Shown: piece by piece, positions 10,187 through 31,700 of the stretch
Position numbering within the stretch: the stretch's first letter is position 1
Layout: every line of letters begins with the position of its first letter
DNA from: an uncultured Candidatus Binatia bacterium
GTDB lineage: Bacteria > Desulfobacterota > Binatia > UBA9968 > JAJDTQ01
Length of the DNA: 64,000 nt
Direction of reading: 5' to 3'
Assembly (NCBI GenBank): GCA_965204505.1
Contig: CBDBFB010000004.1
Span: forward strand, 107,449 to 171,448
Position numbers and translations under genes: made by a program
Notes under the pieces: generated by a model
Told to the model about the DNA's origin: nothing
Databases searched by the model: none
What the model saw: the letters and a program-made list of their open reading frames with translations, nothing else

Positions 10187-10648
10187 ATGAGCTTTGGACT
10201 GAACCGCGTAGAACTGATCGGCCGCCTCGGCGCCGACGTCACCGTCAACCACCTGACCAGCGGCGGCCGCGTCGCCAACATGAGCATCGCGACCGACGAG
10301 TCGTACATCAGCAAGCAGACCGGCGAGCGGGTCGACAAGACCGAATGGCACCGCGTGGTGACCTTCCAGGAGGGTCTCGTCAACATGCTCGAGAAGCACG
10401 CCCGCAAGGGCCGGCTGGTCTACGTCGACGGCAAGCTCCAGACCCGGCAGTGGTCGAAGCCCGACGAGAGCAGCCCCCGCTACGCGACCGAGATCCTGCT
10501 GGTCCCGGGCGGCGGGGTGAAGTTCCTGGACAAGCCCAACGGCAACGGCGCGCCGGCTGCGGCGAACCCGTCGATGGCGGCGGGCGACGCGGCCATGCAG
10601 GACGCCGGCGCCTCGTCCCAGCCCGTGGACGACGACATCCCGTTCTGA
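10187..10648 (+). CDS. ssb: single-stranded DNA-binding protein
   Basis: OB-fold N-terminus (RVELIGRLGADV...TEWHRVV), a Gly/Ala-rich linker and the canonical acidic tail DDDIPF. Confidence 0.95.
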   Translation: MSFGLNRVELIGRLGADVTVNHLTSGGRVANMSIATDESYISKQTGERVDKTEWHRVVTFQEGLVNMLEKHARKGRLVYVDGKLQTRQWSKPDESSPRYATEILLVPGGGVKFLDKPNGNGAPAAANPSMAAGDAAMQDAGASSQPVDDDIPF

Positions 10649-10650
10649 TA

Positions 10651-12155
10651 TGGATTGACCCTGTCAAGTTGCTACAGGGTAGTTGAGATCCTCCCCCCTG
10701 GAAGTGTCGGGGTTGGGGCGCGGCCGACGTTCGCGACGGTGGATCACTCTGATATCCGTGGGTTGGTTACCACCTGACTTCACTTCGTCGCGGAGCTGCC
10801 TCACTCTGAAAACGTGGGTTCACCAGTCCTTTTGGGACCGGCCCCTCACAGAACGGCCGAGGGTTCTCCTCACCGGCCGACCACGCCCCGATCCCGACAC
10901 TCCTCTTGCTTCATGTACTCACCGGACCGATACGCGAGCTCAAGCCGCGGCGCGGGACGCGTGCGGCAGGCCGTTGACCTCGCGTGCGATGGCCCAGATG
11001 AATCCGACCAACTCGCGCGCCACCGCCGTGGTGACGTAGCACTTGTTCTTGCCGACCTGATACAGATGCAGGTAGCGACCGCACAGCCGCTTTTGCGCTG
11101 CCCAGGCCAGCGCCTGCACCGCCTCCGGCGCCACGGACGCCTTCTGCCTCATGTACTTGGTCTTGCGTGCCGGGAAGCGATAGCCCCAGGCCGACTCCAC
11201 CAGCAGCCGGCGTACATGGCCGTTGCCGGCCTTGGTGATCGCACCCGGGCGCCGCCGGTCTCCCGAAGAGCGTTCGCTCGGCACTAGGCCGAGGAAACTC
11301 ATCAACTGCCGCGGCGAGTCGAAGCGGGTGAGATCGCCCAGTTCGGCCAGCACCGTGATCGCCGTGATCCGGTTCACGCCCCGCAGACTGATCAACGCCT
11401 CGACCGTCGGACGTAGCGACCACGAAGCCGCCGCCTCAAGCATCTGCTGCTCCACACCATCCAGGCGAGCCTGCGCCTGCTGCACCGTGTCGACGTATTC
11501 CTGGAACACCACCTGCTGAACCGGTTGCTCAAACGCCTGCTGCTCCAACCAGCCAAAATACGGCTTCGTCCAACGGCAACGCCCCGGGAACACCCGCTCG
11601 TGGCGCAACAAGAAAGCGCTCAGCCGCTGCCGGGCCTTCTGCTGTATCGCCAGCATGTCCTCGCGTGCGCGCGTCAGATCCCGCATCGCCTCCTGATCCT
11701 CGTCCGGCACCCACACTGGCGTCAGATCGCCCGAACGGTGCAGGCGCGCCAACGCCACGGCGTCGCGGCGATCCGTCTTCACCCGATCGCCCGGCTTGCG
11801 CGGAATCAGGCTCGGCGCCACCACCGCGCAGGCGTGACCGCTTTCCACGATCTCCCGGTACACCCCGTATCCGCATGGCCCGGCCTCGTAACAGAAGCTC
11901 AGCAGCTTCCCATCCGGGCTCAGCCGGCCGATCAAACGCCGGAGCGACCCGCGTTGATTGCGAATCTCGCCCCGGTACACCGGATCCTGGCGGCCCGGTT
12001 CCGCGATCGCAACCGCAATGGAGTCCTTGTGAACGTCCAGTCCTACGTACGCGCTATACTCCGTCATGGCCTGCCCTCCTCAATAGTGGCTCTTTCTCAC
12101 GGTTCCAGCGTCGAGCATAAACCACCTCGCCCGAGTCGAGGACCAGGTCAATCCA
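10651..12155 (-). mobile_element. IS110-family insertion sequence (~1.5 kb) with short terminal inverted repeats
   Basis: tggattgaccctg at 10651-10663 is the near-perfect reverse complement of caggtcaatcca at 12144-12155. The pair flanks the transposase ORF. The element sits between the ssb stop and a terminator hairpin. Confidence 0.55.
10940..12067 (-). CDS. IS110-family (DEDD) transposase
   Basis: N-terminus MTEYSAYVGLDVHKDSIAVAI is the IS110 RuvC-like DEDD_Tnp signature. 375 aa. Confidence 0.9.
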   Translation of the reverse strand: MTEYSAYVGLDVHKDSIAVAIAEPGRQDPVYRGEIRNQRGSLRRLIGRLSPDGKLLSFCYEAGPCGYGVYREIVESGHACAVVAPSLIPRKPGDRVKTDRRDAVALARLHRSGDLTPVWVPDEDQEAMRDLTRAREDMLAIQQKARQRLSAFLLRHERVFPGRCRWTKPYFGWLEQQAFEQPVQQVVFQEYVDTVQQAQARLDGVEQQMLEAAASWSLRPTVEALISLRGVNRITAITVLAELGDLTRFDSPRQLMSFLGLVPSERSSGDRRRPGAITKAGNGHVRRLLVESAWGYRFPARKTKYMRQKASVAPEAVQALAWAAQKRLCGRYLHLYQVGKNKCYVTTAVARELVGFIWAIAREVNGLPHASRAAA

Positions 12156-12335: not shown

Positions 12336-13251
12336 ATGCACTACGGTCCGTCCCCAGCCTCCGCGGTCGCCGCGGCGCTTGCAGCGCGCGCCGAAGAGGT
12401 CTGCCAGCGCTACCTCCCCCACGGCCGCCGCCAGGGCCGCTACTGGGTCGCGGGCGACATCGACGGCGCCCGCGGCCGCTCCCTCTTCGTCCGCCTCCAC
12501 GGCCCGGGCGCGCCCGGGAAGTGGACCGACGCGGCCGTGGGCAGCCACGGCGACCTGCTCGACATCATCCGCCACCGCACGGGCGCGCCGACGCTCCGCG
12601 CGGCGCTTGCCGAAGCGCGCGCCTTCCTCGCCCTGCCGGCTTCGCCGGCCAAGGGCGATGCAGGCGACTACGACGCCGCCGAAGCGGCGCGGCGCCTGTG
12701 GCGGGGATGCCGCGCCATCGACGGCACCCACGCGGAGAAGTACCTGCTCGCCCGGGGGCTCGCGCGCTGCCGGTTCCCGGCGCTGCGCTTCCACCCCGAG
12801 CTTCGCTACCGCGAAGGCTCCTCCGTCATCCGCCTCCCGGCGCTAGTCGCCGCCGTGACCGGCGACGACGGCGCCGTCTTCGGCGTGCACCGCACCTGGC
12901 TCGATCCCCGCCGTCCGGCCAAGGCCGGCGTCGCCTCGCCCCGAAAGGCCCTCGGCGACATCCGCGGCCGTGCCGTGCGCTTCGGCATGCCCGCCGGCGA
13001 TGTCGCTACGCTCCTCGTCGGCGAGGGCATCGAGACCGTGCTGTCGCTGGTCACCGCCGTGCCCGACATCTCCGCGGCCGCAGCCCTCTCCGCCGGCAGT
13101 CTCGGCTCCTTCTCGCCCCCGCCCGCCTGCCGCCGCCTCGTCATCGCCCGCGACAACGACTTCGAGGGCGCATGGGCCGCCGAACGCCTCGCCCGGCGCT
13201 GCGCGCGGGCGGGCGTCGAGGCCGCGGTCATCGTCCCCCAGGGCGGAGACT
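12336..13251 (+). CDS. toprim-domain DNA primase, exon 1 (interrupted by an antisense group II intron)
   Basis: Toprim-like body ...LLVGEGIETVLS...ARDNDFEGAWAAE... The frame runs to ...VIVPQGGD, after which the sequence becomes intron. Confidence 0.7.
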
Positions 13252-13308
13252 ACTGCGGTAGGAACGCCGGTTGCCCGGCGCCCCCCCGCTCAGATCCGGA
13301 CGTGCCCG

Positions 13309-16300
13309 CTAAGGCATCCGGCTCCTCCCTTGGGTACCGCCCCGCATGGCGCTGACGGCAAATCGTTTGTCCGGCCACGGGTGTCGGATTTCCAGCCTGG
13401 GCCAGTGAGCCACCACATGGCGTGCGATGTCGGCCCAGTTCGAGCGGTCCTTCTGCGACCGTCGGCGTAGCGTTCGCAGCCACAGCCGCTTCAGGCGGGT
13501 GGCAAAACGGTAGAGGTATCGGTAGCTGGTCGGGACCGCATAGTAGTTGAGCCATCCGTCGAGCACCTTCCCCAGCCATCTCGCCATTGCTTTGGGTTTG
13601 CAATGCATCCGTCTGCGTAACCCCTCCTTGATCCGCTTCAGTGTCCGGCTCATCCGTTTCGCAACCGGCTTGCGCCCCACCTGAAAGCGCCCCAGTCTGT
13701 TCTCCGTGCAGTAGTGCGTGAAGCCCAGGAAGTCCAAGGTCTCCGGTCTGCCCTGCCCTCGTTGCCGATGGCTTTTGACGGCAAACCGCCCGAACTCAAT
13801 GAGTCGGGTCTTGTCGGGGTGCATTGCCAGTTCAAAACTCTCGAACCGCTCCTTTACGGCACTCAGGAAGCGCTCCGCGTCCCGCTTGTGCTGAAAACCC
13901 ACCACGAGTCGAGTAGCCGAGGGGAATTTCACCCCTCGGCCCTCCCAGAACCGGACGTGAGACTCTCGCCTCATCCGGCTCCTACCCTCCAGCCTCAGAC
14001 ACCGGCTCCTCCCATCTCTGGTTGGCCTCCATCCTTGGCCAGAGGGTCGGGTCCCTTCGCTCCGCCCGCATTGCCGGGCTTCATCGCTAATACGGACCCG
14101 TCCGTCCCTGTGCTCCGCTTCGGTACTCGGCTCCTTGCGGTTCTTCCGCTTGGAGGTCTCCCTTGGCATCGGAGCTCCAGGTTCCCACGTTCCGCACAAG
14201 AGCCTCTCGCTGGTCTCACGCCGCCTTCATGCCGGTCGCCGCTCGGCCAGTCAGCAGGCACCCTCCGAGCTCCATCCCAGACCAACGACTGGAGCCTGGT
14301 TTCGGCGACATCTTTACGCTTTCGACACGTCATCAACGGTTCACTTTCGTTCGTCTTACCAGCGCACACCTGACGGGTGATTCCCGCCTTTTCCGCAACG
14401 CTCACCACCCCGGTCGTTGAACCGGAGCAGCTTGCGGTGGTTTGGACCCTGGTCCTGCAACCCGAGTCCGAGGGGCCTTCCCTCATCTCCTGTGCAGCAA
14501 GGCGCTTCAACTCGGCTCTGCTACGTCATCAGAACCTCCTCTCGTCGCCGTCGTGGCGCACCGTCATCGGCGTACCGCACGATGACGGTGTCGCCTCTGA
14601 CCTCGCGGCTGCGCCATTTCTTCTGGAACCACAGGTCGAGGACGTAGTGCAGGTAGACGTTCGCCAATACCGGCGAAACCACCGAGCCTTGAGGCGTTCC
14701 CCGCAGATCGTCCCGCCACTCTCCAGCTTCGTCGGGTAGGACGCTGGCGCGCGCATCCTTAGGTGGAGGCTTGTCCGCTCCCGCTCTTTCGATCGCGGGT
14801 GGGTGCGCAGTTCCACCATAGACCACGTTTCCAGCATCCCCCCTGAAATTCCGTACGTCCGGTTTTCCCGGGTACGGCTTCAAGCACCAGGCACCCCTTC
14901 AGGAGTTCGGTACGGCGTCTTCCGCGATACCCGCCACGGTTAAGGCTGACCCGGCCATGCCCGTGCAGACACCCGCGTTTACGCCGTCCTTCGACCGTGC
15001 CGCATATCGCCGTGGAGGCCGGTTTCTGTGCACCGGCAGACCAGCCATACGCCACACGGTCACCTAGGCCCAGAGGTCCTCGCTCAGGGCCGGTTATGTT
15101 GTCCAGCCCGTCAACGCTTAATCGACCTCATCCGCCAGTCAGGAGGACTCCGCGTCCTTTCCCGTTATCCGGTTATGGACGCGGTCCTTGACATTCAAGG
15201 GTCACAACATCCTGTCTGTCCTCCTCACCTTCCGGACTTTCACCGCTGAACTTTCCCGGATTGCCGCCGTCTGTACGCCGGGGGACCCGATGCGTGCATT
15301 CCTCAGTTCCTTCCGCATCGGTTCTAGCCATCGGGACGTCATGAATCCCTTGGCATCCACCAATTACCCCCACAAGTCAGCTTCGATGCGGGGAACGCCG
15401 TTTTCGACGCTTCGGACGACTGTTCGCTTTCGCTACGGCCCTCCGGTTTGCTCGCCCTCCAACTGACCTGGACCAGAAGTGAACAATCTCTCACCCGGCC
15501 CACAAGGGCTTTTACTTCCCTGCTTTACAGGCAGCAGGTCGCCCTGTTGCCTGCGGGATATGACTACGACGCCAAACTGAGAATTGCGCCGGCGGGACTT
15601 TCGCCCGCGAGTTCAGCAGCTAGTCTCGCTGCACCATGACGCCGGCGCTCAACCACTTGATGATGAGCCTGATGACCCGCTTGTCCCCGATGCGGTGCTC
15701 CAGGAACCGGATCAGCCAGTCCCTTGACACGTTGTCGAAGAATGCGCGGATGTCACAATCCACCACCCAGTTGATCTTGCGCCGTTTTAACCCGACCGTG
15801 AGCGCATCGAGCGCATTGTGCGGTCCACGCCCTGGCCGGAACCCGTAGCTGAACCCCAGGAACTCCGCCTCATAGATCGGCGTCAGGATTATCTCCGTCA
15901 CCGCCTTCTGGACTATCTTGTCCTCGATGGCCGCGACGCCGAGCGGTCGTGTGCCGCCATCAGGCTTCGGTATGTTCACCCGCCTTGATGGCGTCGCCCG
16001 GTACGCTCCCGAGTGCACGCGGTCGTGAAGGTCGGCCAATCGGCCTTCCAGCCCTTCCTCGTACTCCCGCCACGTCACGCCGTCCGCGCCTGCCGCAGCG
16101 TCTTTCTTCAGTTCGAAGAATGCCCAGCGCAGCGCATCAACCGTGACATGGTGAAGAAGCGCCGTCAGACGCTCCCGTGGTTCCCGTTGAACGAATTGCC
16201 GTATCCGGTCAGCCGCCTGTGTCACGCTTTCCCGGTCCTGCGCCCGGCGCGTGCTTTGGCTTCCCGGATTCCCCTTGGGCTCGGTCCTTCGCTCCATCGA

Positions 16301-16381
16301 CTCCGCCGGGACCACGGCCCCTTTGTTCGCCGACTTCTCAGCTAATATGACCGAGTCTGACTTCTCCATGCCGTGCATCAT
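13309..16381 (-). CDS. group II intron-encoded reverse transcriptase/maturase (RT0-7 plus X, no En domain), in three segments split by nested introns
   Basis: Segments: 16381..15635 (RT0-3, ending ...IKWLSAGVM), 14730..14562 (EAGEWRDDLRGTPQGSVVSPVLANVYLH...RYADD), 13907..13309 (VVVGFQHKRDAERF...ETLDFLGFTHY...LNYYAVP...RHPW). The joins are in frame once introns C and B are removed. Confidence 0.8.
13908..14561 (-). mobile_element. nested ORF-less group II intron B (~654 nt) between RT-motif YADD and VVGF of the intron A RT gene
   Basis: 5' GUGCGCCACGACGG follows ...UACGCCGAUGACG. A canonical 34-nt domain V, GAGCCGGAUGAGGCGAGAGUCUCACGUCCGGUUC, with AGC triad, GAGA tetraloop and AC bulge, is at complement 13948-13981. 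Domain VI GGGCCGAGGGGUGAAAUUCCCCUCGGCUACUCGAC ends at 13908. Confidence 0.7.
14731..15634 (-). mobile_element. nested ORF-less group II intron C (~904 nt) inside the intron A RT gene
   Basis: Starts GUGCAGCGAGACUAGCUG right after ...GGCGUCAUG. It ends ...CGUCCUACCCGAC. The exon join gives AGVM|EAGEW. A domain V-like hairpin CCGUAC-CCGG-GAAAA-CCGG-AC-GUACGG is at complement ~14847-14882. Confidence 0.6.
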
Positions 16382-17425: not shown

Positions 17426-17872
17426 ACGCTTCCGCTGCAACTCCCGGATTATTGGGGCCAGCTTCGGCCTACACCTTCGTTCCGGCCTCTCCTGATTCCT
17501 CCCTTCGCTTCGCCCCCTCCGCCCAGGCCACAGGACCCCTCTCCTCTCCCCAGGCCCGATCCCCGGTCTCCCTGCCGAGCGAGAACCATCTGTGGCCCGC
17601 CAAGCCCTCGGCACCTCCCGGCCTGTTCCTGCCGGGCTCCGCCCGGTTGGATGCCTCGTCCACCGCACCCGGAGATACTCCACAGTAGGCCCTCCCTCCG
17701 TCTCGTCCCATCGTAGCACGCCGTCAACCCCCTCCTTCGTCGGGGGTCCTCCGCTTCGCTCCGGCGCAACCCCGCCCCAGGGCCCCTCCGCCCCGCGTGA
17801 CTGGCCGTGCTCCAACGGGACGAGACGGAGGGAGTTCCTCCACTGGCGGGCGATACGGGAAAGGAGAAGGCG

Positions 17873-18871
17873 ATGGAAGCAACGAACAGGGTAGTCAACG
17901 CCGGCGCAGAAACCGTAGTTCCGAAACACCAGGAGGACAGCATGGAAAGAAACGAAGTCGACAACATTGCAGACCAGGGCGTTTCCAGCATGGCCGCATC
18001 CTGCGAAAACGCTCAGCTCTTCGGCGCTGCCCCGGGACCCGACGAGTTCGATTCCAGGGACGTCTGGGACGAGGAAGACGCACTCGACGCGGTCCACGCG
18101 GCCTTCGAGATCCTCGCGGGCGGCATCGGCCCCGACGGCACCCAGCTCGCGGACGAGCGCGAGAGCCTGCTCTGGGGCTTCGTCAACATGCTCGACGCTC
18201 AGACCCAGCGCCTCGACCGCTCAGCCGACCGCCTCATGCCCGGCCTCCGCGACCTCCAGCACGAGCAGGACGGCTCCGAGATCAAGTCCCGCGAACTCGA
18301 ACTCATCACCGACCGCGCACAGAACCTCGCAGCGCGACGCGACGCCTTCGAGCGGATGCGCGACGTTGCGGCCGAGGACTACCTGGCAGCCACCGGCCAG
18401 ACATGGCGGCCCCGCTCAGGCTCTCACACCAGTCAGACCGGCAAGCTCACCTCCGCAGCCATCGACGCCCGTGACTTCATGCGCGCCCGCAAGGACCGCA
18501 AGACCCAGGCCCACCTGCCCGAGGGAACCCTGGTGGCGGTCACCGGAGGCAAGGACGTGAGCGAGCCCGCCGCGGTCTTCAACAGGCTCGACAAGGTCCG
18601 CGAGAAGTACACCGACATGGTGCTGGTACACGGCGGTGGCCCCGGCGTCGAGCGCATCGCGGCGAGTTGGGCCGAGCAGCGCGGCGTCCACCAGGTCGTC
18701 TGCAAGCCCGACTGGGACCGCCACGGACGGGCCGCTCCCTTCCGCCGCAACGACGACCTCCTCAACCTCCTGCCCAAGGGCGTCATCGCCTTCCCCGGCA
18801 GCGGCATCACCGACAACCTCGTCGACAAGGCGAAGCAGCTCGGCATCCCGGTCCAGAAGGTGGCGGCATAG
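17873..18871 (+). CDS. DUF2493 (SLOG-fold) domain protein
   Basis: AAGGAGAAGG RBS. C-terminal ...MVLVHGGGPGVERIAASWAEQRGVHQVV...FPGSGITDNLVDKAKQLGIPV is a Rossmann/SLOG module typical of DUF2493 proteins of conjugative elements. Confidence 0.65.
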   Translation: MEATNRVVNAGAETVVPKHQEDSMERNEVDNIADQGVSSMAASCENAQLFGAAPGPDEFDSRDVWDEEDALDAVHAAFEILAGGIGPDGTQLADERESLLWGFVNMLDAQTQRLDRSADRLMPGLRDLQHEQDGSEIKSRELELITDRAQNLAARRDAFERMRDVAAEDYLAATGQTWRPRSGSHTSQTGKLTSAAIDARDFMRARKDRKTQAHLPEGTLVAVTGGKDVSEPAAVFNRLDKVREKYTDMVLVHGGGPGVERIAASWAEQRGVHQVVCKPDWDRHGRAAPFRRNDDLLNLLPKGVIAFPGSGITDNLVDKAKQLGIPVQKVAA

Positions 18872-18883
18872 GCCGTACACCGA

Positions 18884-18921
18884 GGGGGCGCGTCGCTTCG
18901 GCGGCGTGCCCCCCTTTTTTT
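18884..18921 (+). terminator. rho-independent terminator
   Basis: gggggcgcgtcgcttcggcggcgtgccccc followed by ttttttt. Confidence 0.75.
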
Positions 18922-19071
18922 GGAGAACCGTATACAATCGCAACCAGAGACCTGTTCCCGTTCGGGGAATGTTGTCTGCCGCCGGCCGGGATACCCGACA
19001 CGGAGGCAGTCACCGACCGCTACCTGGACGTGACGGCATGCATGCTCGAAAGGAAGGACGGAGGGCAACTC

Positions 19072-19338
19072 ATGGAACACGCTGTGGAACTGAATCTTGG
19101 TCCTGACGACAGGAATCGACTGCTTCGTCTACTGGAGGACTGGGGTTGCACAGAACAGGACTTCGTGACCGCGGCCGTGGTGTCGCGGTTGGATCTGTGG
19201 GATTTCGAGAGGTTCATGTCGCGGCATCCGATCTTTGGCAAGGGGGCGCCTGTGGGGCGCGAGCTGGAGCCCGAAGAAGTCGACAGGATCAAGGAAAAGA
19301 TTCGGTTGGCCATGCATCAGTCTTCGCTGCCCGGCTAG
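19072..19338 (+). CDS. hypothetical protein
   Basis: AAGGACGGAGGG RBS precedes ATG 19072. 88 aa. Confidence 0.4.
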   Translation: MEHAVELNLGPDDRNRLLRLLEDWGCTEQDFVTAAVVSRLDLWDFERFMSRHPIFGKGAPVGRELEPEEVDRIKEKIRLAMHQSSLPG

Positions 19339-19339
19339 T

Positions 19340-20580
19340 TCTCAGCGTCCTCCTTGAACTGAAACGTCCTGCCGCACACACGGCTCGCCGCCTTCGGCGA
19401 CATCGCCGCACTCGCGCCGCCCGCCTCGCTCCGCTCGTCGTCGGCGCGCCCCTCCGCATCCGCGTCGCCGGTGCGGGCTTCGCCCCACACCGGCTCCCGC
19501 ACCACCGCTGACGCCGCTGCCTGCGTTTCCGGCAACGTGCTCCGCACGTCTGCCGTCACCGCCAGGCACAACCTTCGCGCCGCCGCTCGCTGACGCTCCC
19601 GGCGCGCTTCGCACGTCTCAACCCCGCATCGTACACTTGCCGCGCTTCAATGTCGTTCACCTCATTGCGCTCGCCATCGGCACAGACCCCCCTCCACGGC
19701 CCATGTCGCCGAGGACCCGCTTCGCGCCTCCCCTACGCCACTCGGCGACGCGGGCCTTCCCCCCTCCGTCGGACCGGTCCGTCCTTCCTGCGGCGCGCCG
19801 CCGGTGCACGCTTCCCCCGTCACCAGCTTCCACTCCCCGCCGTCCTCGGTGTCTGCACCACTGCGGACGCCCCGGCCGGTGCTTCCGGCAACGTGCTTCG
19901 CACGTGTGCCATCAGCGCCGTCCGCAGTGACCACTACTCAATCGCCATTGCCCGTTGACGGATTCTGTCGAGCCCGCTGCGCGGTCTCGCCTCTCCCGCC
20001 CGGCATCCCTCGCGCCGCCGCTCGCTGACGCTCCCGGCGCGCTTCCCACGCATCAACCCCGCATCGTACACTTGCCGCGCTTCAATGCCGTTCACCTCAT
20101 TGCACTCGCCATCGGCACGGACCCCCCGCCGCGGCCCATGTCGCCGAGGACCCGCTTCGCGCCTCCCCTGCGCCACTCGGCGACATGGGCCTTCCCCCCT
20201 CCGTCGGTCCGGTCCGCTCTTCCTGCTTCGCGCCGCCAGCACGGGCACCGCCGTCACCAGCTTCCGCATCATGTCCTGCTCCGGTGTCCGCGCCTCCGTC
20301 ACCGTGCTCCGCACGCATCCCGTCAGTTCCTTCAGCGCAGCTCGCCGCACTCGCGCCTTCCGCCTCGCTACGCTCGTCGGCACCCGCTTCCGCACCACGT
20401 CCTGCACTCGTGTCCGCACTACTGCGGACGCCTCTGCCGTCGCCTCCCGCAGCGTGCTTCGCACGACTGCCCTCAGCTCCTCCGCACGGACCCCCACTCA
20501 GTCGCCGTGGCGGCTCCCCTCCGCCGGGTCCGCCGGCGCCCATCCCCCCGTCGCTTGAACCCCTGGTTTCTTCGTTCCTG
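19340..20580. repeat. about 2.5 copies of a ~433-bp degenerate tandem direct repeat, non-coding
   Basis: The unit boundary core cgccgccgctcgctgacgctcccggcgcgcttc(g/c)cacg...ccccgcatcgtacacttgccgcgcttcaatg(t/c)cgttcacctcattgc recurs at 19578 and 20011. A partial copy spans 19340-19577. The 433-bp period is not a multiple of 3. Confidence 0.8.
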
Positions 20581-21074
20581 ACCGCTTGCGCGGGCTCTGG
20601 TTCTCACACCGGACGCAGCTAGCTGCCGGTGTAGCCGGGCGTGCGCCTGTCGTGCATTCCCGTGCGCTCTCGACGACACGGGACGCCGGGCACATGCCGG
20701 ACCGAGTGTATTCTCCAGAGCATACACGCCGTCTTCGCACCCCTGCCGCCCTAGGGCTGCGCATGTCGCGCAGCGATCCCACGATGTATTCTCTTGCGTC
20801 GCAGAATGTGTTACGGCGTATTACGTGTGTAACCTTATTGTAGTCGCCTGAAACACGGCCCGAACACGCCCTGCCGAGGCTCGCCGCCGGCAAGCGGTCG
20901 CCCCACCAAGGCGCTCGGCGACAGTCCTGGCGGGAAGGTTGCGAAGGGTCTCAACGACCTCGCCGGCTTCCCGGTTTCTACCGCAACCGGGACACCGACG
21001 GCCTGTTTCAGAGCACGGAATGGACACGGAGTGGGCCGTGGGTCGGCCTGGAGAGGGCAGAAAAGGATAAGAGG

Positions 21075-21464
21075 ATGGCGCAAAACGATCGCGGAAATCC
21101 GGGAACGGGGAGCAATCCGGCCGGAAAACGGAGCGATGCGCGGCAGCCCCGCTCGATCCGCTTCTCCGATTCCGAGTGGCGGCTGATCGAGAAGGTCGCC
21201 ACTCGGCACGGCGTTCCGGTTGGAGAGCTGGTCCGCGCCGGGGCGCTCGCCATCGCCGAGGACCGGCTCGGCGAGGATACTCCGGCCACGTTGACGCCCG
21301 GACACCTGGCGCTCATCGAGGCCACCTACCGCTCGGTCTACATGATGGCCACGCTCAAGCGAGACGAATTGCTCGACGCCGAACGGCATGAGGAACTCCA
21401 TCGCTTGGTCGCAGCGGCCCGCAAAACGATGGCGGAGACCATGGACGAAGGGCCCGGAAGTTAG
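21075..21464 (+). CDS. MobC-like ribbon-helix-helix relaxosome accessory protein
   Basis: AGAGGA RBS. ...RSIRFSDSEWRLIEKVATRHGVPVGELVRAGAL... is the MobC/RHH pattern (R..vRlt..E...l...A...G.s.s.l.R). Confidence 0.65.
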   Translation: MAQNDRGNPGTGSNPAGKRSDARQPRSIRFSDSEWRLIEKVATRHGVPVGELVRAGALAIAEDRLGEDTPATLTPGHLALIEATYRSVYMMATLKRDELLDAERHEELHRLVAAARKTMAETMDEGPGS

Positions 21465-21593: not shown

Positions 21594-22595
21594 GTGGACC
21601 GCGTCGACTATCAGCCTTTACTGATTCAGGATTTGGTAACTTGGAACAGAAACGGGGAACTTGATCTCGCCCCGTGGTACCAACGCCGCGCCGTCTGGAC
21701 CACCGCACAAAAGGCTTACCTCGTAAACACTTTGTTCGAGCGAAAGCCCGTGCCAACCCTGTATTTCCGTCACGCTATAGATCTCGACGCCGACAAGACT
21801 GTCCGCGAGGTGGTCGACGGCCAACAACGGATCCGCGCTGTACTCGAGTATCTCGCCAATGAGTACGCGGCACGCCACCCTCAACATCCCCGTCGACTGG
21901 TTTATTCGAAACTTACCCGCCCACAACAGGAAGCTTTCCGCGAGACTGCTCTCTCCGGCGGTTGGTTACTTGGCGCTACAGACCAGGACGTAATTGAAGT
22001 CTTCGGCCGCCTGAACTCCGTATCCAAGACCCTAAACGCATCTGAGAGTCGCAACGCGAAGTATGGCGGCGAGTTCAAACAATTCTGCTTGCGGCACGCC
22101 GCCAATCGCGTCGCCATGTGGCGTGACCTCAACATTTTCACCGCGAATGACATCGCCCGAATGTTGGAGGTCCAATTCCTCGCTGACTTGTGCCTCAATC
22201 TCATGCATGGCCTAAGCGACTACAGCGCCGCCAGACTCAACAACCTCTATAAAGATAACGATGACGAATTCGAAGAAGCGGACTACATTGAGCGCCGTTT
22301 AGAGCGTTGCTTCGCACGCGTGGCCGAACTCCCCAAGGACGCCATTTTTGACACGATATTCCGCCGGCAACCAGTTTTCTTCTCACTAATTGTCGTTCTC
22401 GACAGCCGTAAGAGCCTTCCCGCCAGCAACCGACTTGCCACCGTCCTTCGTGAGGTCGACGCCCGATACAACTCTGACGTCCCGCTGCCTGATCGGCCAC
22501 CTAGCGACGCAGCGTTCTACGAAGCCTGCCGAGCTAGCACACAACGCTTGAAAAACCGCCGTACGCGTCACGACTATATCGCGTCTTTTCTGTAG
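21594..22595 (+). CDS. DUF262 (ParB/Srx-fold, GmrSD N-terminal-like) domain protein
   Basis: DGQQR motif (VVDGQQRIRAV). About 333 aa. The local GC is markedly lower than in the surroundings. Confidence 0.8.
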   Translation: MDRVDYQPLLIQDLVTWNRNGELDLAPWYQRRAVWTTAQKAYLVNTLFERKPVPTLYFRHAIDLDADKTVREVVDGQQRIRAVLEYLANEYAARHPQHPRRLVYSKLTRPQQEAFRETALSGGWLLGATDQDVIEVFGRLNSVSKTLNASESRNAKYGGEFKQFCLRHAANRVAMWRDLNIFTANDIARMLEVQFLADLCLNLMHGLSDYSAARLNNLYKDNDDEFEEADYIERRLERCFARVAELPKDAIFDTIFRRQPVFFSLIVVLDSRKSLPASNRLATVLREVDARYNSDVPLPDRPPSDAAFYEACRASTQRLKNRRTRHDYIASFL

Positions 22596-22603
22596 GTCCC
22601 GGC

Positions 22604-23218
22604 ATGTCACCTAGCCTGCGCCCACAGCTTCGGCGCACTCTCACCGCCACGACCGCGGCTCTGGAACTGACAGACCAATTGGACCAGCCTGTCAATTTTC
22701 CCAAGCACTACATTGCCGAACTAATTCTCCTCCGGATTTTTGCATTTTTCGAATCGGTCGTGGAGGAAATAGCCTGCCGACTTGTCTGCGGTGCCTCATA
22801 CTGCGACGGAAGCAAACCTACTTTGTTGCGAAATCGGCCAACGCGGAGCAACGAGAAGGCGCTTCAGGCGATGCAGAGTTACAACAGGTCGGAGCCACGG
22901 TACCGATTGCGATGGAACCAAGCCAAGGAAATTGCGGACAACCTAGAAACCCTGTTTCCAGAAAACGAACATTTCGTAGCGACGATCCGCAACCACGGGC
23001 AATTGATATCGGACCTGCGAAAGGTCCGAAATCACATCGCACACCGGAACCAGGGCACTTATAAGAAGTTCCAGGAAGTTGTCCTTCGGAGGTATGGAGC
23101 AAGGATTCCAAGTATGACGCCAGGGCGCATGTTGGTTTCGCATCGCTTTTCCCCCAACTTGGTGGAAGAATGGAGTAGAGCTGTTCAGATACTGACTAAG
23201 GCCGCTATTCGAGGTTGA
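22604..23218 (+). CDS. HEPN-like protein (Rx4H motif RNHIAH), partner of DUF262
   Basis: Begins 9 nt after the DUF262 stop. ...LRKVRNHIAHRNQG... fits the HEPN Rx4-6H motif. Low GC. Confidence 0.45.
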   Translation: MSPSLRPQLRRTLTATTAALELTDQLDQPVNFPKHYIAELILLRIFAFFESVVEEIACRLVCGASYCDGSKPTLLRNRPTRSNEKALQAMQSYNRSEPRYRLRWNQAKEIADNLETLFPENEHFVATIRNHGQLISDLRKVRNHIAHRNQGTYKKFQEVVLRRYGARIPSMTPGRMLVSHRFSPNLVEEWSRAVQILTKAAIRG

Positions 23219-23710: not shown

Positions 23711-26656
23711 TTAGAGTTCGAGGTCCATCTCGATGCGCTTGCCGCGGGCGGGCGGCTCGGGTTCCGACGCCCTGTCCCGGGACGTTGCCGGCTCGGTTTC
23801 CCTCTCCAGGGAAGGCGGCGCGGATTCCTCCGGGCTCTGCCATTCCCTTTCGGGCAACGCTTTGTCGTCCTTTTCGCGCTCGCGTTGGATCGCCTCGCGG
23901 ATGCCTTCGAGCGCGGAGATGCGTTCGCCGGTGACCGATTCGAGACGTTCCCTGAGCGCCTGCGCATCGTCGGTGACGAGTTCCGCGCGGTCGCGCGCCC
24001 GCGAGACCTCCACGTAGAACGACTTGGCTGTGGTCAAGCGGGGGTGTTTGGCCTCCATGGCGGCGATCACGTTGTCCACCGTGCGCCCCTGGAAAGCGTG
24101 CACGGTCGAGGCCCAGGCGTGATCGAGATGGCGCAGTTCCGGATCGCCCGGGGTGAGGGTGAGCTTGCGGCCCTCCTCCAGCATGAACGTCACCCGCCCG
24201 TTCCCAACGCCCAGAACGTCGGCCGTGCCGCTGTTGACCAGTCCGAGTCCCTTGTCGTTGCGGGTCCAGCGGATGCGGTCGCCGGCGCGAAGCTCGATGG
24301 TCTCCGCTGTATAGACTTCGGCGCCGCCCCGCCGCCCGCCGATCTCCGATGGCTTCCAGGCAACGGTCGAGCCGTTGGGACCCTCGAGATGTACGATTCT
24401 TTTCTCGTGATCGACGCTTTGGACGCGCCGCTCGTCGCCCTTCTCAACGCCGAGACGCTTGTACGGGCGGTGGAAGGCGACCACGTCGCCGGGCGTGTAG
24501 TTGGAACTGAGCGCCTTCTCCGCGTTGGTGTAGCCTTTCGAAACCAGCCGCTGGGTCTGCAGGGCCGGCCCGGCGATGCGTCCCTCGCGGGCTAGGCGCT
24601 CGCGGATATGGGCGTTGATTCCCTCGCGCAGCTCGTGGCTCGGGGCCATCACCCCGGTGCGCTCGCGCATCTCCGGCGAGAGCCTGAGCCAGCGCGCCGC
24701 CACCGCGCCCGCGATGTTGTCCGGGTTCACTTCCGCTACATTGCCGCCCAGCTTGTCGAAAGCCTTGCCGATCTCGCCCGCAAGGCTCGCCTCGACGGCG
24801 GCCCTGAGATCGGGGTCGCGCTGGCGCAGGATCTCGTCCATGACCGCGGTCTTCATGCCCGCCTGCTGCAACTGCGCGAAGGGTTTGCCCGCGTCGACCG
24901 CGTCCAGTTGCTTCGCGTCGCCCACCAGCACGAGCTTCGGCACGCGCAGTTCGCTCGCGATCCGGAGCAGGTCGCGGGCCTGGACCGTGGACGCAAGCGA
25001 CCCCTCGTCCACCACTAGCACGGTCTTCGCGAAGGCGGCGCGCATATCCTTCGCGCCCTTCTTCGTGAGTCTGCCTTCGGCCACGCCCGCGTTCCTTGCA
25101 AGGAACCGTTGCAGGGTCTCGCTCTCGATCCCCGACTCCGCCGCCAGCGTCCGCACCGCCGACGCCGATGGCGCAAGCCCGACCATGCGCCAACCCTTCT
25201 TCTCCGCCAGCGCCCGTGCGCGGTCGAGCATCCGTGTCTTCCCGGTTCCGGCATACCCCTGAACGCCCACCGTGCGGTCCTCCCCCGAGAGGATCAGCTT
25301 CACGGCTTGCTTCTGTCCGGCCGTGAGCGGTCCCTTGCGGAGGTGCCGGTCCACCGTCCAGCCGCGCATGGGCGCCTTGCCCCGGCGCTCGCCGCTTCGC
25401 ATCAGCGCGATCGCCTCCCGTTCCCGGGCCACCGCCTTGTCCGTGGTGAGACCGCCGCCCCGCCCGAGGGCCGGCGCATCGTGCAGGCGGCCCTCGCGTC
25501 CGAGTGCGTCCACCGCCTGCTCGATGGCCTCGATCGACGCCGCGCCCGGACTGTACGCGAGCGCGGCCGAGAGCAGATCGTTCTTCGTGAACACCGCGCT
25601 GCGCTCGGAGAGATGGGCAAGAGCCCAGTCCACGGCCTCGCGCGCGGGGCCGGACCTCGCGGTGAACTCGAAAAGGTCCGCTTGGGGCGCCGCCCCGGAA
25701 GGGCCGTCCCTGCCGCCCGGGTCGAGCCCCTGTTCCATGGCCGCATCGACCAGCGCCTTGGCGTCGAAGCCCAAGTGAGTTGCCTGTCCGGCCCAAGTCT
25801 CGCGCAAAGCACCCCGATCCACATCGCGCTTGCCCGCACGGGTCATCAGCGCCGCGCGCCTGGCAAGGTGCTGGTTCTCCGCCGTCCTGCCAAGGCCCCG
25901 CTCCTCCATCGCCGCCTCGATCTCGGCACGGCGTGTCGAAAATGCCTCCACGGTCTCGCGCGAGACCCCTGCGATCTCGAATCGGCCGTCCGAATGGGTT
26001 CTCTCGATCCCGTATCCGAGCTTCGTGAGTTCGCCCGCGAGCTCGCTCCGGTAGAGCGCCCCCAGAAGCATCTTCGAGGCGTACAGGCTCTCGTTCGCCA
26101 TGGTGTGCCATTTGTCGTCCCGACCGAGCACCATGTTGGCGATCACCGAGTGTGTATGCAGAGCGGGATCGAGGTTCCGTGAGGTCTCGTGCCTGAAGGT
26201 GGCGACTACAGTCTTCTGATCGCGTACGCGGACCATGCGGCCGCTCCCTGTGTCCTGCAACCTGGTCTCGGCCGCGTTCCTCTCGAACCAGTCGAGCGCG
26301 CGCCCAACCGCACGGCCGTGGGCCTCCACGATGCGCTCGTCGCCGCCGATGAGCGCGGCCAGGGAGACGGACTTGGGCGCGGAGAACGTCAGGTCACGGC
26401 CGGGACGGTGGTGGATCGCGCCGTCCCCCATCCTGCGGCCGAGCCGTTGCCCGGAGCCGTCCGGCACCTCGCCCTCCAGCACCGCCTTGAACGTGTCGGG
26501 ATCGACCGGCCCTTCGAGGCCCAACTCGGCCGCTCCCCGGCCCGCCCAGGCGCTCGCCGCCCGGTGCTCGGGAGAGTCCTTCGCGTAGTATCCGTCCCTC
26601 TCGTAGTAGCCGGCGCCCTGGGACGGGCTCGCCACCGCTCCGATCGACGCGACCAT
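23711..26656 (-). CDS. traI: MobF/TrwC-type conjugative relaxase with C-terminal TraA-like helicase
   Basis: N-terminal relaxase domain (...YYAKDSPE...HHRPGRDLTFSAPKSVS...HTHSVIANM...). Helicase Walker A GYAGTGKT. 981 aa. Confidence 0.9.
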   Translation of the reverse strand: MVASIGAVASPSQGAGYYERDGYYAKDSPEHRAASAWAGRGAAELGLEGPVDPDTFKAVLEGEVPDGSGQRLGRRMGDGAIHHRPGRDLTFSAPKSVSLAALIGGDERIVEAHGRAVGRALDWFERNAAETRLQDTGSGRMVRVRDQKTVVATFRHETSRNLDPALHTHSVIANMVLGRDDKWHTMANESLYASKMLLGALYRSELAGELTKLGYGIERTHSDGRFEIAGVSRETVEAFSTRRAEIEAAMEERGLGRTAENQHLARRAALMTRAGKRDVDRGALRETWAGQATHLGFDAKALVDAAMEQGLDPGGRDGPSGAAPQADLFEFTARSGPAREAVDWALAHLSERSAVFTKNDLLSAALAYSPGAASIEAIEQAVDALGREGRLHDAPALGRGGGLTTDKAVAREREAIALMRSGERRGKAPMRGWTVDRHLRKGPLTAGQKQAVKLILSGEDRTVGVQGYAGTGKTRMLDRARALAEKKGWRMVGLAPSASAVRTLAAESGIESETLQRFLARNAGVAEGRLTKKGAKDMRAAFAKTVLVVDEGSLASTVQARDLLRIASELRVPKLVLVGDAKQLDAVDAGKPFAQLQQAGMKTAVMDEILRQRDPDLRAAVEASLAGEIGKAFDKLGGNVAEVNPDNIAGAVAARWLRLSPEMRERTGVMAPSHELREGINAHIRERLAREGRIAGPALQTQRLVSKGYTNAEKALSSNYTPGDVVAFHRPYKRLGVEKGDERRVQSVDHEKRIVHLEGPNGSTVAWKPSEIGGRRGGAEVYTAETIELRAGDRIRWTRNDKGLGLVNSGTADVLGVGNGRVTFMLEEGRKLTLTPGDPELRHLDHAWASTVHAFQGRTVDNVIAAMEAKHPRLTTAKSFYVEVSRARDRAELVTDDAQALRERLESVTGERISALEGIREAIQREREKDDKALPEREWQSPEESAPPSLERETEPATSRDRASEPEPPARGKRIEMDLEL

Positions 26657-28751: not shown

Positions 28752-31700
28752 GTGCCGCGGTTCGCGGCAACGGAGATGATGGATCACGTGGCGGGAACGA
28801 ACAAGAAGCTGACAGCCGCAATCGAGGCGTATCTCACCGACCTCGGACGGGTACGCGCATCGGGCGGCGCGACCGGGGAGCGATCAATCTATGGGCCGCT
28901 TGCCAATCTCCTTAACGCTGTCGGAGGCGCGCTCAAGCCGTCGGTGTTCTGTGTGGGCGAGTTGGCCGATCAGGGCGCAGGGCATCCCGACTTCGGCCTT
29001 TACGCGGTGAGCCAGGTGCAGAAGGGTCGACCAAAGGGCGGCCAGGTTCCAGAGCGTGGCGTAGTCGAGGTGAAGGCCCCCGATGACGACGCTTGGCTCA
29101 CGGCGGCGGGCGATCAAGTCAGCCGGTACTGGAAGCGCTACCGTTCGGTGCTGGTGACGAATACGCGGGACTTCGTGTTGGTGGGCGAAGACGGGGCAGG
29201 CCGTCTCGAGAAGCTGGAAACGTTCCGGCTGGCGGATAGCTTGGAGGACTTCTACCGCCAGTTGGAGAAGCCGCGTATCTTCGCTCGTAATGTTGGCCTG
29301 GGCCTCGGCGAATATCTTTGCCGCGCACTCTCATATCAAGCCGCTCTTTCGGAGCCCAAGGACTTGGCTTGGCTGCTCGCTTCCTATGCGCGCGACGGGC
29401 TGGGGCGCGTCGAGGCGACGGGTGATTCGCCATCGCTCAGGGTGGTGCGCTCGGCCCTGGAGGAAGCCTTAGGCGTTCACTTCGAGGGCGAGAAGGGCAA
29501 GCGCTTCTTCCATTCAACGCTGGTGCAGACACTTTTCTATGGCGTCTTTTCTGCCTGGGTCCTGTGGTCGCGCAGTTTCAAGTCCGACAGCGGGGCGCAT
29601 TTCGAGGGCGGCTACCGCCCCAAGCAGTTCAGTTGGCGCGAGGCGGGCTGGCATCTTCGAGCGCCGGTTCTGCGGGTGCTGTTCCAGCAGATATCCGATC
29701 CGGTGCAACTGCAATCCCTCGGTCTCGTCGAGGTATTGGACTGGACCGCCGGAGCGCTTGACCGTGTGGATCGAACGGCCTTCTTCTCCCGATTCAACGA
29801 AGGCGAGGCGGTGCCGTACTTCTATGAACCGTTTCTCGAAGCCTTCGACCCCGATCTCAGGAAACAATTGGGTGTCTGGTATACCCCGACGGATGTGGTG
29901 CGTTACATGGTCACCCGCGTAGACAGGGCGCTTAAGGACGACCTCGGTATCGCAGGGGGATTGGCCGCGGAGAACGTCTACGTCCTCGATCCTTGCTGCG
30001 GTACCGGCGCCTATCTGGCCGAAGTACTGCGACGCATCGCGGCTAATCTTGACGGACAGGGATTTGGGGCCCTGGCGGGTGCTCGGCTGAAGCAGGCGGC
30101 ATTGGGCCGTGTGTTCGGCTTCGAGATCATGCCGGCTCCGTTCGTCGTTGCCCATTTGCAGGTCGGGCTGACCATGCAAGACCTTGACGCGCCGATGGCG
30201 GACGATGGGACCGAACGGGCAGGGGTGTTCCTCACAAATGCGCTGACGGGGTGGGAGCCGAGGACGACCAAGCCCTTGCCATTCCCGGAACTCGAAGAAG
30301 AACGCGACCGGGCGGACCGCGTGAAGCGGGAGACGCCGATCCTCGTGATCCTCGGCAATCCGCCCTACAATGGCTTCGCAGGCATGGCGGTAGACGAAGA
30401 AAGGGAATTGTCGGAGTCGTACCGGTCGACAAACCAGGTCAGAAAACCAGAGGGGCAAGGGCTGAATGATCCCTATGTCCGCTTCTTCCGCATGGCGGAA
30501 CGGCGTATCACGGAAAAGACCGGTCGGGGCGTGCTCTGCTTCATTTCCAACTACTCATGGCTCGACGGCCTGTCCTTCACGGGGATGCGAGAGCGCTATC
30601 TGGAGGCGTTTGACTCGATCCGCATCGACTGCCTGAACGGTGACAAGTACAAAACCGGCAAGGTCGCACCGGACGGCTCACCCGACCCAAGCATCTTCTC
30701 GACGGAGGGCGATCCGGTCGGCATCCAGGTCGGAACCGCCATCACGACTCTGGTGCGCAAAGCGGACCACAAACCCGCCGATACGGTGGGCCTCCGGAAC
30801 CTCTGGGGCCAGGCGAAACCGGCGGAGCTGAACGAGACAGCCGAAGCGGAAGCGGATAGCCTGTACGAGCAGATCGAGCCTGTCCTGCCGCTTGGTCTTC
30901 CCTTCGTGCCAACCACGGTGAGCGGCGACTGGTTCGACTGGCCCACGTTGCCGGATCTGTTCTTGAAGTCGTTTCCTGGCGTCAAGACTAGTCGTGACGG
31001 GTTCCTCGTAGATGTGGACCTCGACCGACTGCGGGCACGCGTCGCCGATTATTTCGACGCGGCGTTGAGCCATGAGGAGATTGCGTCACGCTATCCGACA
31101 GTGATGAAGACTTCGGCGCGATTCGACGCCCGCTCTGTGCGTGACGCGTTGTTGAAACGTGGCGGGCCGGACGAAGGCGGGTTCATCCGCTTCACGTATC
31201 GGCCGTTCGACAACCGCTGGCTCTATTGGGAGGAAGATAGTCGACTACTTGACCGGCCACGACCCGACTACAGGCCGCATGTCTTCGAGGAGAATTTGTG
31301 GCTGTCAGCCGCGCAGCATCTCCGGAAGGGGGAAGAGGACCCGCAAGCGTGTTCTACGACGCACATGAGTTGTCTGCATCTGATCGAGCGTACTGCATTG
31401 ATGTTCCCGGCATGGCTCTGCGCCGACGCTCTGGATACGACGGGGGTCAAGGGCCGCCCAAATCTGTCTGATCCGGCTCAGTTCTACCTGCAGCGTATCG
31501 GCGCGAGCGTCGAGGATTTGTTCCATCATGTTCTTGCCACGTTGCACGACCCGGTCTACCGAGCGACTAACGCAGGCGCCTTGAGGATGGAATGGCCCCG
31601 GATACCCCTTCCGGGCTGGCGCAATGGCGGCACCGTGAAAGGGGCGGCAAATATGCTCGCAGAAACCGCGACACGGGGTCGCGACTTGGCACAGATGCTG

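Follow-up and report, generated by a model that had tools for sequence, protein, structure and literature searches.

The window analysed here is a 64-kb stretch of contig CBDBFB010000004.1 from an uncultured Candidatus Binatia bacterium, and all coordinates are window positions. It appears to carry an integrative element mobilised by a TrwC-type relaxase, and the segment of interest, at about 19378 to 20604, would be the start of its leading region. On its minus strand, this non-coding segment is a predicted array of short hairpins capped by the heptamer GCGNAGC. The leading genes to its left are all on the plus strand and encode RadC, a strawberry-notch methylase-helicase (4189-8661), SSB (10187-10648), a DUF7146-Toprim protein (12336-13355), a DUF4326 protein and a YspA/DUF2493 protein (17807-18871). 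An intrinsic terminator predicted from its 13-bp stem and subsequent T run (18884-18913, plus strand) closes leading-region transcription ahead of the array. To the right of the array lie a predicted nick site (nic), a plus-strand gene transcribed away from nic and encoding a ribbon-helix-helix protein (21075-21464; NikA/DUF6290-like, a candidate relaxosome accessory protein), and, on the minus strand, the gene of a TrwC-family (MOBF) relaxase-helicase (23711-26656; TrwC domain, E=7e-84). A preliminary description of this DNA had placed a repeat between leading-region genes and the transfer origin. This placement holds, with SSB, Toprim and YspA/DUF2493 on the left and the predicted nic on the right.

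Self-comparison of the array revealed two copies of a repeat lying in register. Over 234 nt without gaps (19569-19802 and 20004-20237) the copies are 92% identical; with gaps allowed, the unit reaches 292 nt (copy 1, 19569-19859; copy 2, 20004-20294; 87% identity, E=4e-94). The preliminary description had read here a 433-bp tandem repeat of about 2.5 copies. The repeat is indeed at that place, and the core then quoted as conserved does recur (19578-19684 and 20013-20119), but the spacing is 435 bp and only two copies are in register. The supposed half copy corresponds to shorter modules of 40-135 nt, present three to five times each (offsets of 126, 150, 331, 356, 411, 560, 768 and 938); beyond the in-register copies, the whole of 19378-20604 is a mosaic of such modules at irregular offsets. 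Tandem Repeats Finder reported no long-period array in the region, and none near period 433. A blastn search of a plasmid collection with the repeat region gave no match. Within the 64-kb window the modules are confined to the array, no further copy having been found elsewhere, and a genome-wide repeat of the repetitive extragenic palindromic (REP) or miniature inverted-repeat transposable element (MITE) type is therefore ruled out. The inverted repeat gtcgccgag...ctcggcgac, pointed out earlier, is confirmed. Its arms are 16 nt long, 21 related loci conserve it, and it would form a long hairpin on the minus strand of each copy. The arms are 88% complementary in copy 1 (hairpin 19698-19756; arms 19698-19713 and 19741-19756), where a 27-nt apex holds a GCGAAGC mini-hairpin at 19719-19725, and 100% complementary in copy 2 (hairpin 20133-20191; arms 20133-20148 and 20176-20191), with GCGAAGC at 20154-20160 in the apex.

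The array had been called non-coding on the ground that its period is not a multiple of 3. This argument is invalid since the actual spacing, 435 bp, is divisible by 3, but the conclusion is borne out by other evidence. Codon-position GC periodicity is absent over 19340-21060 (max-min 0.05-0.25, versus 0.45-0.58 in the neighbouring gene), ten open reading frames (ORFs) inside the region gave no match in a Pfam search, and substitutions across 46 relatives show no period of 3 (rank 61/102), whereas the coding control, from the adjacent gene, ranked 1/145. A protein-coding gene or pseudogene is ruled out by these three observations. The minus strand of the array is G+A-rich; no G-quadruplex motif was found on this G-rich strand with loops of up to 12 nt allowed.

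Related loci were collected by a scan with the DUF2493 protein, one genome per species, which yielded 80 syntenic loci. In one set, hereafter the Binatia group (L001-L022 and L072), the DUF2493 protein is 84-94% identical and the metagenome-assembled genomes are labelled mainly Candidatus Binatia or Thermodesulfobacteriota; in the remaining loci, mostly from Alphaproteobacteria, it is ~75-79% identical. Genomes of the Binatia group often carry several copies of the element, and spacer lengths differ between copies; examples are a Candidatus Binatia assembly with six loci, on two contigs, and a Thermodesulfobacteriota chromosome with four.

The window spacer contains GCGNAGC 12 times on the minus strand (low ends at 19428, 19477, 19539, 19606, 19719, 19895, 19976, 20154, 20225, 20306, 20367 and 20456) and a single time on the plus strand; in the remaining 62.7 kb of the window, the counts are 47 and 35, respectively. 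The same bias characterizes the family. In 70 spacers totalling 53 kb, the set that also served for the hairpin census, the heptamer occurs 382 times on the minus strand and 24 times on the plus strand, against 101.6 +/- 10.4 in dinucleotide-preserving shuffles, and the minus strand is in excess in 66 of the 70 loci. GAA is the most over-represented of the 64 GC-NNN-GC loops, at 16.9 times expectation, and the middle base of GCGNAGC is A in 189 cases, G in 100, C in 85 and T in 8. This order, A>G>C>>T, parallels the measured stability of the DNA hairpins, which melt at 76, 73, 71 and 70 C with A, G, C and T, respectively (PMC13037366). According to this review by the discoverers of the motif, GNA loops are the only ones that allow GC-NNN-GC fragments to form the mini-hairpin, a structure that is extremely stable, nuclease-resistant and a poor binder of SSB; RNA versions are far less stable, r(GCGAAAGC) melting at 39 C. 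The rank of the middle bases and the contrast with the unremarkable TNC loops of the opposite strand point to the minus strand acting as single-stranded DNA, in agreement with the independent, nic-based strand assignment given below.

Most of the heptamers cap longer stems. A census of stems of at least 8 bp found 128 in the 70 spacers, compared with about 23 in each shuffled replicate and with 6 in the adjacent coding DNA (64 kb); their minus-strand loops comprise 42 GAA, 18 GCA and 15 GGA, plus 17 GCGAAGC in another register. Typically, a lower stem of 4-6 bp is followed, after a single bulged base in the 5' arm, by a 5-bp upper stem and, at the top, a GNA loop closed by a C-G pair. In the window, bulged hairpins of the minus strand are found at 19467-19494 (12 bp, one bulged base on the 5' arm, GCGAAGC cap), 19530-19555 (11 bp, GCGGAGC cap; CGGCAG-A-CGTGC GGA GCACG TTGCCG) and 19886-19911 (11 bp, GCGAAGC cap), and a further hairpin, with 8 bp, one mismatch and a GCGCAGC cap, at 19969-19989. 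RNAalifold run on a MAFFT alignment recovered only 7 pairs, the loop lengths shifting the register, and hand-defined helices with pair counting were used instead. One hairpin lies 131-134 nt from nic in both clades, with stems that vary (CGTGC/GCACG, GGTGC/GCACC, CATGC/GCATG). In an unbiased alignment of the 70 loci, 76% of its cells are paired, against 20-46% in slid controls, and 42 cells show a double change, against 18 in shuffles, none of 500 shuffles reaching the observed value. Consecutive heptamers are 49-178 nt apart in the window, with a median of 74 nt across loci, and no spacing peak indicative of phasing with the SSB footprint was found across loci. The iteron or partition site that had been offered as an alternative explanation of the repeat is not supported by the same data: such an array would need regular direct repeats of ~9-22 bp, but the only element shared is a 7-nt motif, irregularly spaced and devoid of conserved flanks.

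Where the array ends on the right, the conserved 190 nt were aligned for 46 loci. Their plus strand displays an invariant TCACACC-SS-A-CGCA beside a 5-bp hairpin, the fourth pair of which covaries (T-A 22, C-G 11, G-C 8). Read on the minus strand, the hairpin comes first and is followed by TGCGT-SS-GGTGT/GA, invariant across the family (here and below, the slash marks the cleavage position, which is a predicted one for this family). The family consensus, GCGTGGGGTGTG, matches the nic core of the F plasmid, 5'-TTTGCGTGGGGTGT/GGTGCTTT (PMC2504302), at 12 of 12 bases, and a hairpin, IR2, followed by a single-stranded core is the architecture of the MOBF origin of R388 (PMC4176350). In the window, the predicted nic core is GCGTCCGGTGT/GA (20604-20616, minus strand), the exact core occurring only once, and the nic-proximal inverted repeat GCAGC TA GCTGC (20615-20626, minus strand), which covaries in the family, occupies the position of IR2 in R388. 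An inverted repeat with a conserved core, a gene for a MOBF relaxase and a candidate accessory gene are thus all found beside the repeat. The geometry also matches that of the F plasmid, whose nic oligonucleotide is on the strand opposite the leading genes and traM. Taken together, these features place nic on the minus strand, with cleavage probably between 20606 and 20605. The minus strand would therefore be the transferred strand, moving leftwards, so that the DNA from 20604 down to about 19378 would be the first to enter the recipient, and the transferred strand would be the template of the leading genes.

The synteny of the relaxase and ribbon-helix-helix genes beside nic holds in related loci. 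In many alphaproteobacterial relatives (L025, L026, L036, L041, L068, L080 and others), the ribbon-helix-helix gene is inverted and located downstream of the relaxase gene; the nic core of these relatives keeps its position and strand.

The distribution of the motif along the element shows a boundary at nic. On the transferred strand, its density is 2-4.4 per kb over most of the 4 kb of the leading side, falling to about 1 per kb within the YspA gene; once nic is passed, it is 0.1-1.3 per kb. On the plus strand, the density is flat throughout. Since its density drops at nic, the motif is a computational marker of both the transferred strand and the nic boundary in this element family, and it could help to orient transfer origins in uncultured elements. 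This boundary bears on the possibility that the array acts as RNA. The plus strand is strongly C+T-rich, with a GC skew of about -0.3 (-0.25 to -0.38 over 1.2 kb), as expected of a Rho utilisation site, and a C-rich, G-poor plus transcript could constitute a Rho-dependent termination zone or an insulator between the leading operon and the origin, or else a structured small RNA. However, the upstream gene already ends in a strong intrinsic terminator, no promoter-like site is present, and neither strand of the region matches Rfam at a permissive threshold, which also leaves the small RNA of the preliminary description without support. Moreover, the conserved minus-strand loop is a GNA loop, a DNA-specific type whose RNA version is far less stable, and the enrichment stops exactly at nic, a landmark of DNA processing. 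An RNA-level role is accordingly very improbable.

Alternatively, the array could act in the donor as double-stranded DNA, supercoil-driven extrusion of the hairpins, of the kind seen at the early promoters of phage N4, or protein binding to the repeated motif helping to melt the origin, to load the relaxase-helicase or to organise the relaxosome. The array abuts nic, and a conserved block of 23 nt at 20495-20517 could be a protein site. In the MOBF origins of F and R388, accessory sites are on the trailing side. The window has its candidate on that side too: the 20627-21074 segment, of lower G+C content, with TGTATTCTC at 20707 and 20785 and an inverted repeat at 20700-20733, is a probable binding region for relaxosome accessory proteins, which counts against a donor role of the array. 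In favour, GNA-loop hairpins are known to be used by the N4 virion RNA polymerase (PMC13037366). On the other hand, a motif of only 7 nt with irregular spacing and no conserved flanks is a poor protein-binding array, and the covarying stems point to structure rather than sequence recognition. Action in the donor duplex is for these reasons distinctly unlikely.

The distance from the DUF2493 stop codon to the nic core is mostly 280-680 nt in the non-Binatia loci and 770-1780 nt in the Binatia group, which indicates an expansion of the spacer in the lineage of the window. Modules are found 3' of the DUF2493 gene in all Binatia-group loci; their number and order vary, even within one genome. Among the 81 sequences searched (the window and the 80 loci), the module at 19569-19665 of the repeat is present only in the window, and the nic-proximal core is kept in 68. 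The latter (20429-20604, minus strand) comprises a bulged GCGAAGC hairpin at 20449-20470, the conserved block at 20495-20517 and hairpins at 20522-20538 and 20582-20593. One may then ask whether the 190 nt beside nic are the only functional part, the rest, including the 435-bp repeat, resulting from neutral expansion by slippage or unequal recombination. Such expansion would account for the larger spacers and heptamer numbers of the Binatia group (medians of 1211 nt and 8 heptamers, versus 448 nt and 4 outside it), for the differences in module number and order between copies, and for a module private to the window. It does not explain, however, why the heptamer is kept while the stems change, nor why different module types all carry it. 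Furthermore, the strand-specific enrichment is also observed in the short alphaproteobacterial spacers and extends 4 kb into the leading region. These observations argue for selection on the motif rather than hitch-hiking and make purely neutral expansion an unlikely explanation. In my reading, the 435-bp repeat arose when modules bearing hairpins were duplicated in this particular lineage. The conserved feature is GCGNAGC, not the 435-bp unit.

Two observations concern the surroundings of the DUF2493 gene. The ~460 nt between its terminator and the array (18920-19377), including an ORF of 88 aa without family match (19072-19338), are absent from all 80 related loci and so look like an insertion. 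An 81-nt repeat module (19960-20045 in the window) is also found 5' of the DUF2493 gene in five loci of alphaproteobacterial type, L066, L068, L069, L075 and L080, and in L066, L069, L075 and L080 it is present both upstream and downstream, thereby flanking the gene.

The preliminary description had likened the repeat to the single-strand promoters of conjugative leading regions. Frpo elements are long imperfect hairpins with -35/-10 hexamers, located upstream of genes (PMC11541004). The array is indeed in the leading region, on the template strand of the leading genes, and it has hairpins. Nevertheless, a scan of 18800-21200 with the Escherichia coli sigma-70 consensus detected no promoter-like -35/-10 pair on either strand. 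Compared with shuffles, the 292-nt unit folds with a z of -0.59 (minus strand) or -0.61 (plus strand), and the nic-proximal core with a z of -0.86 on the minus strand, with no sign of a long imperfect hairpin (~150-330 nt). The location is also unsuitable, the array being 3' of the last leading gene and its terminator, so that a promoter there would transcribe only towards nic, with no gene in between. Finally, a long hairpin of the proper shape sits elsewhere, just 5' of the DUF2493 gene (17680-17846, minus strand; 41-nt arms, 80% complementary, GCGAAGC near the apex). Its z is -4.77, none of 200 shuffles folding as well, and it has no sigma-70 hexamers in a simple scan. By shape and position, this hairpin is the candidate Frpo-like structure of the element, and it is extremely unlikely that the array consists of repeated Frpo-type promoters. 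Alphaproteobacterial relatives have long hairpins of other sequence at the same place (z -6 to -8).

The mini-hairpins are known from the primase site of G4, from ssiA of RSF1010, which is served by the RepB' primase, and from the early promoters of the N4 virion RNA polymerase (PMC13037366). Because they are stable, bind SSB poorly and mark known priming sites, the likeliest role of the array is that of a single-strand-initiation (ssi) signal. My working interpretation, adopted tentatively and with a little less than even confidence, is that the array serves the entering strand as an ssi or SSB-excluding signal, and that duplication of modules has enlarged it in the lineage of the window. The ssi-type structure suggested earlier thus stays plausible and becomes the preferred reading, albeit on new grounds, namely the GCGNAGC mini-hairpins of the transferred strand. 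In the corresponding scheme, the relaxase would nick the minus strand at ~20606/20605 and this strand would leave 5'-first. The segment from 20604 to ~19378 (the first 0.4-1.2 kb across the family) would enter the recipient first, in single-stranded form, and would fold into d(GCGNAGC) mini-hairpins, twelve in the window, most of them capping covarying stems of 3-12 bp, often with one bulge. These structured, SSB-free sites would let a primase, possibly the host's or else the Toprim protein that the element itself encodes 7 kb upstream, start the complementary strand, whether during entry or once the single strand has recircularised. The ancestral unit would be the 190 nt beside nic, with three hairpins at fixed spacing. 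Consistent with priming, the element encodes both SSB and the DUF7146-Toprim protein in its leading region; and the array displays what is found at ssi sites of the G4/RSF1010 type, that is, stable covarying hairpins and a GNA mini-hairpin motif on the template strand.

Several points weigh against this interpretation. The priming role is predicted from sequence, and conserved nucleotides flanking the heptamer, which might represent a primer start, were sought across loci and none were found. The Toprim protein has no sequence match in the PDB and no primase family match, only weak similarity to the C-terminal region of TraI. It is also awkward that, as long as the strand is linear, a primer located 130-1200 nt from its 5' end would copy only that stretch; the signal would hence matter mainly after recircularisation or in donor rolling-circle replication. 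The closest relatives of the window (L001-L015) have GTGTCGAGCAC at the 133-nt position, the GNA loop being lost and the stem kept. The wobble test for the strand gave only a mild bias, with 68 minus-only and 41 plus-only G-T pairs. Nearest-neighbour folding of whole units is no better than that of shuffles, although nearest-neighbour models do not capture mini-hairpin stability (PMC13037366). Lastly, GCGNAGC is not enriched in the F plasmid or in pMLb, so the array is not a general requirement of conjugation; pMLb is one of the plasmid relatives of the DUF2493 gene, which have a ParB-Sbno-Toprim-DUF2493 block, other relaxase types and no motif enrichment.

A rival possibility is that the hairpins delay synthesis instead of initiating it. 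As a roadblock or timing buffer, they would stall complementary-strand synthesis before the relaxase-bound 5' end and keep the nic end single-stranded until recircularisation. There is a precedent in the ssp2 stem-loop of F, a physical barrier to complementary-strand synthesis that is resolved by UvrD and delays conversion of the leading region (bioRxiv 10.64898/2026.01.09.698686). The array is strand-specific, extremely stable and densest beside nic, and additional hairpins, as in the lineage of the window, would strengthen a barrier. However, in the direction of synthesis it comes after all the leading genes and so cannot prolong their single-strandedness, which is the benefit shown for F, and mini-hairpins as short as 2-5 bp may not halt a replicase. 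I therefore regard a roadblock as unlikely, about on a par with neutral expansion.

Returning to initiation and SSB exclusion, a more ambitious version of the proposal can be formulated. The d(GCGNAGC) arrays starting at nic would be an unrecognised transferred-strand signal of a widespread TrwC-mobilised family, which by sequence appears to span Alphaproteobacteria and Candidatus Binatia. They would be either the sites of the Toprim protein, then a site-specific conjugative primase, or a fast-refolding, SSB-excluding leader that ratchets and protects the entering 5' end and times conversion. This version is rather doubtful. Priming or loading at the hairpins, if it occurs, would account for the conserved but functionally uncharacterised Toprim and DUF2493 genes found with them.

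Other genes of the window deserve mention. GmrSD-N-like and HEPN genes (21594-23218) separate the ribbon-helix-helix and relaxase genes; in the close relatives L003, L004 and L012, the relaxase gene directly follows the ribbon-helix-helix gene, and the GmrSD/HEPN pair is thus a defence-type cargo insertion in the transfer module. Unlike all the leading genes around them, genes for an IS110-family transposase and a group II intron-type reverse transcriptase/maturase (10940-12067 and 13309-16381) are on the minus strand of the leading region. The segments 28752-32171, 36182-37084 and 38949-40037 encode a type ISP restriction-modification enzyme and two tyrosine recombinases. The ORF scan, which covered about half of the ORFs called and none past 43 kb, turned up no gene for type IV secretion or for a coupling protein. 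The element may therefore be mobilisable without being self-transmissible, or else its mating genes may be located to the left of the window.

How the transferred strand fares during its first seconds in the recipient is under active investigation, in work on single-strand promoters, delayed conversion and anti-defence expression, and the answers so far come almost entirely from F-like enterobacterial plasmids. The element family described here, abundant in Alphaproteobacteria and present in multiple copies in Candidatus Binatia, seems to rely on another kind of structural device, which is short, easily mutated and well characterised in its chemistry. Structures of the transferred strand in leading regions, such as ssi and Frpo, are already known, but the literature searched holds no description of a GCGNAGC array bounded by nic for conjugative elements; a full-text search combining the motif and conjugation returned nothing useful.

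Comparison with known systems delineates what is particular to the array. The origin itself is of the MOBF type: the 5-bp inverted repeat, its spacing and the GCGT..GGTGT core are as in F and R388, and the gene layout is as in F. By contrast, the array has no counterpart in these origins, F having 12 GCGNAGC in 22 kb for 13 expected. The early promoters of N4 resemble the array in that a GCGGAGC-type mini-hairpin on a 5-7 bp stem is a recognition element on template DNA, but they depend on the N4 virion RNA polymerase, for which no gene is present here. The single-strand origins (sso) of rolling-circle replicons are structured non-coding elements near the nick that convert the displaced or transferred single strand to duplex; in the work of Wright, Johnson and Grossman from 2015, sso1 of ICEBs1 reportedly matters for the establishment of an integrative conjugative element. 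Known sso types, as usually described, differ from the array in having conserved motifs of their own, in being single units and in being usually upstream of the nick. The Frpo/ssp elements of F and ColIb-P9 share with the array a location in the leading region, structure on the transferred strand and repetition within one element, whereas the units of the array lack hexamers and a long stem and are placed after the last gene. The closest parallel is with the G4 origin and with ssiA and ssiB of RSF1010. There are differences: instead of one compact site, 4-14 copies are spread over 0.4-1.8 kb, they have no conserved initiation sequence, they are at the 5' entering end of a conjugative strand, and their use by a primase is putative. 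The G4 mini-hairpin is GCGAAAGC and that of RSF1010 ssiA is CCGAAGG (PMC13037366). In all of them, as in the array, hairpins are borne by a single-stranded template and include a GNA or GNNA mini-hairpin that binds SSB poorly. The complementary-strand origin of G4 has three hairpins, and so does the nic-proximal core of the present element.

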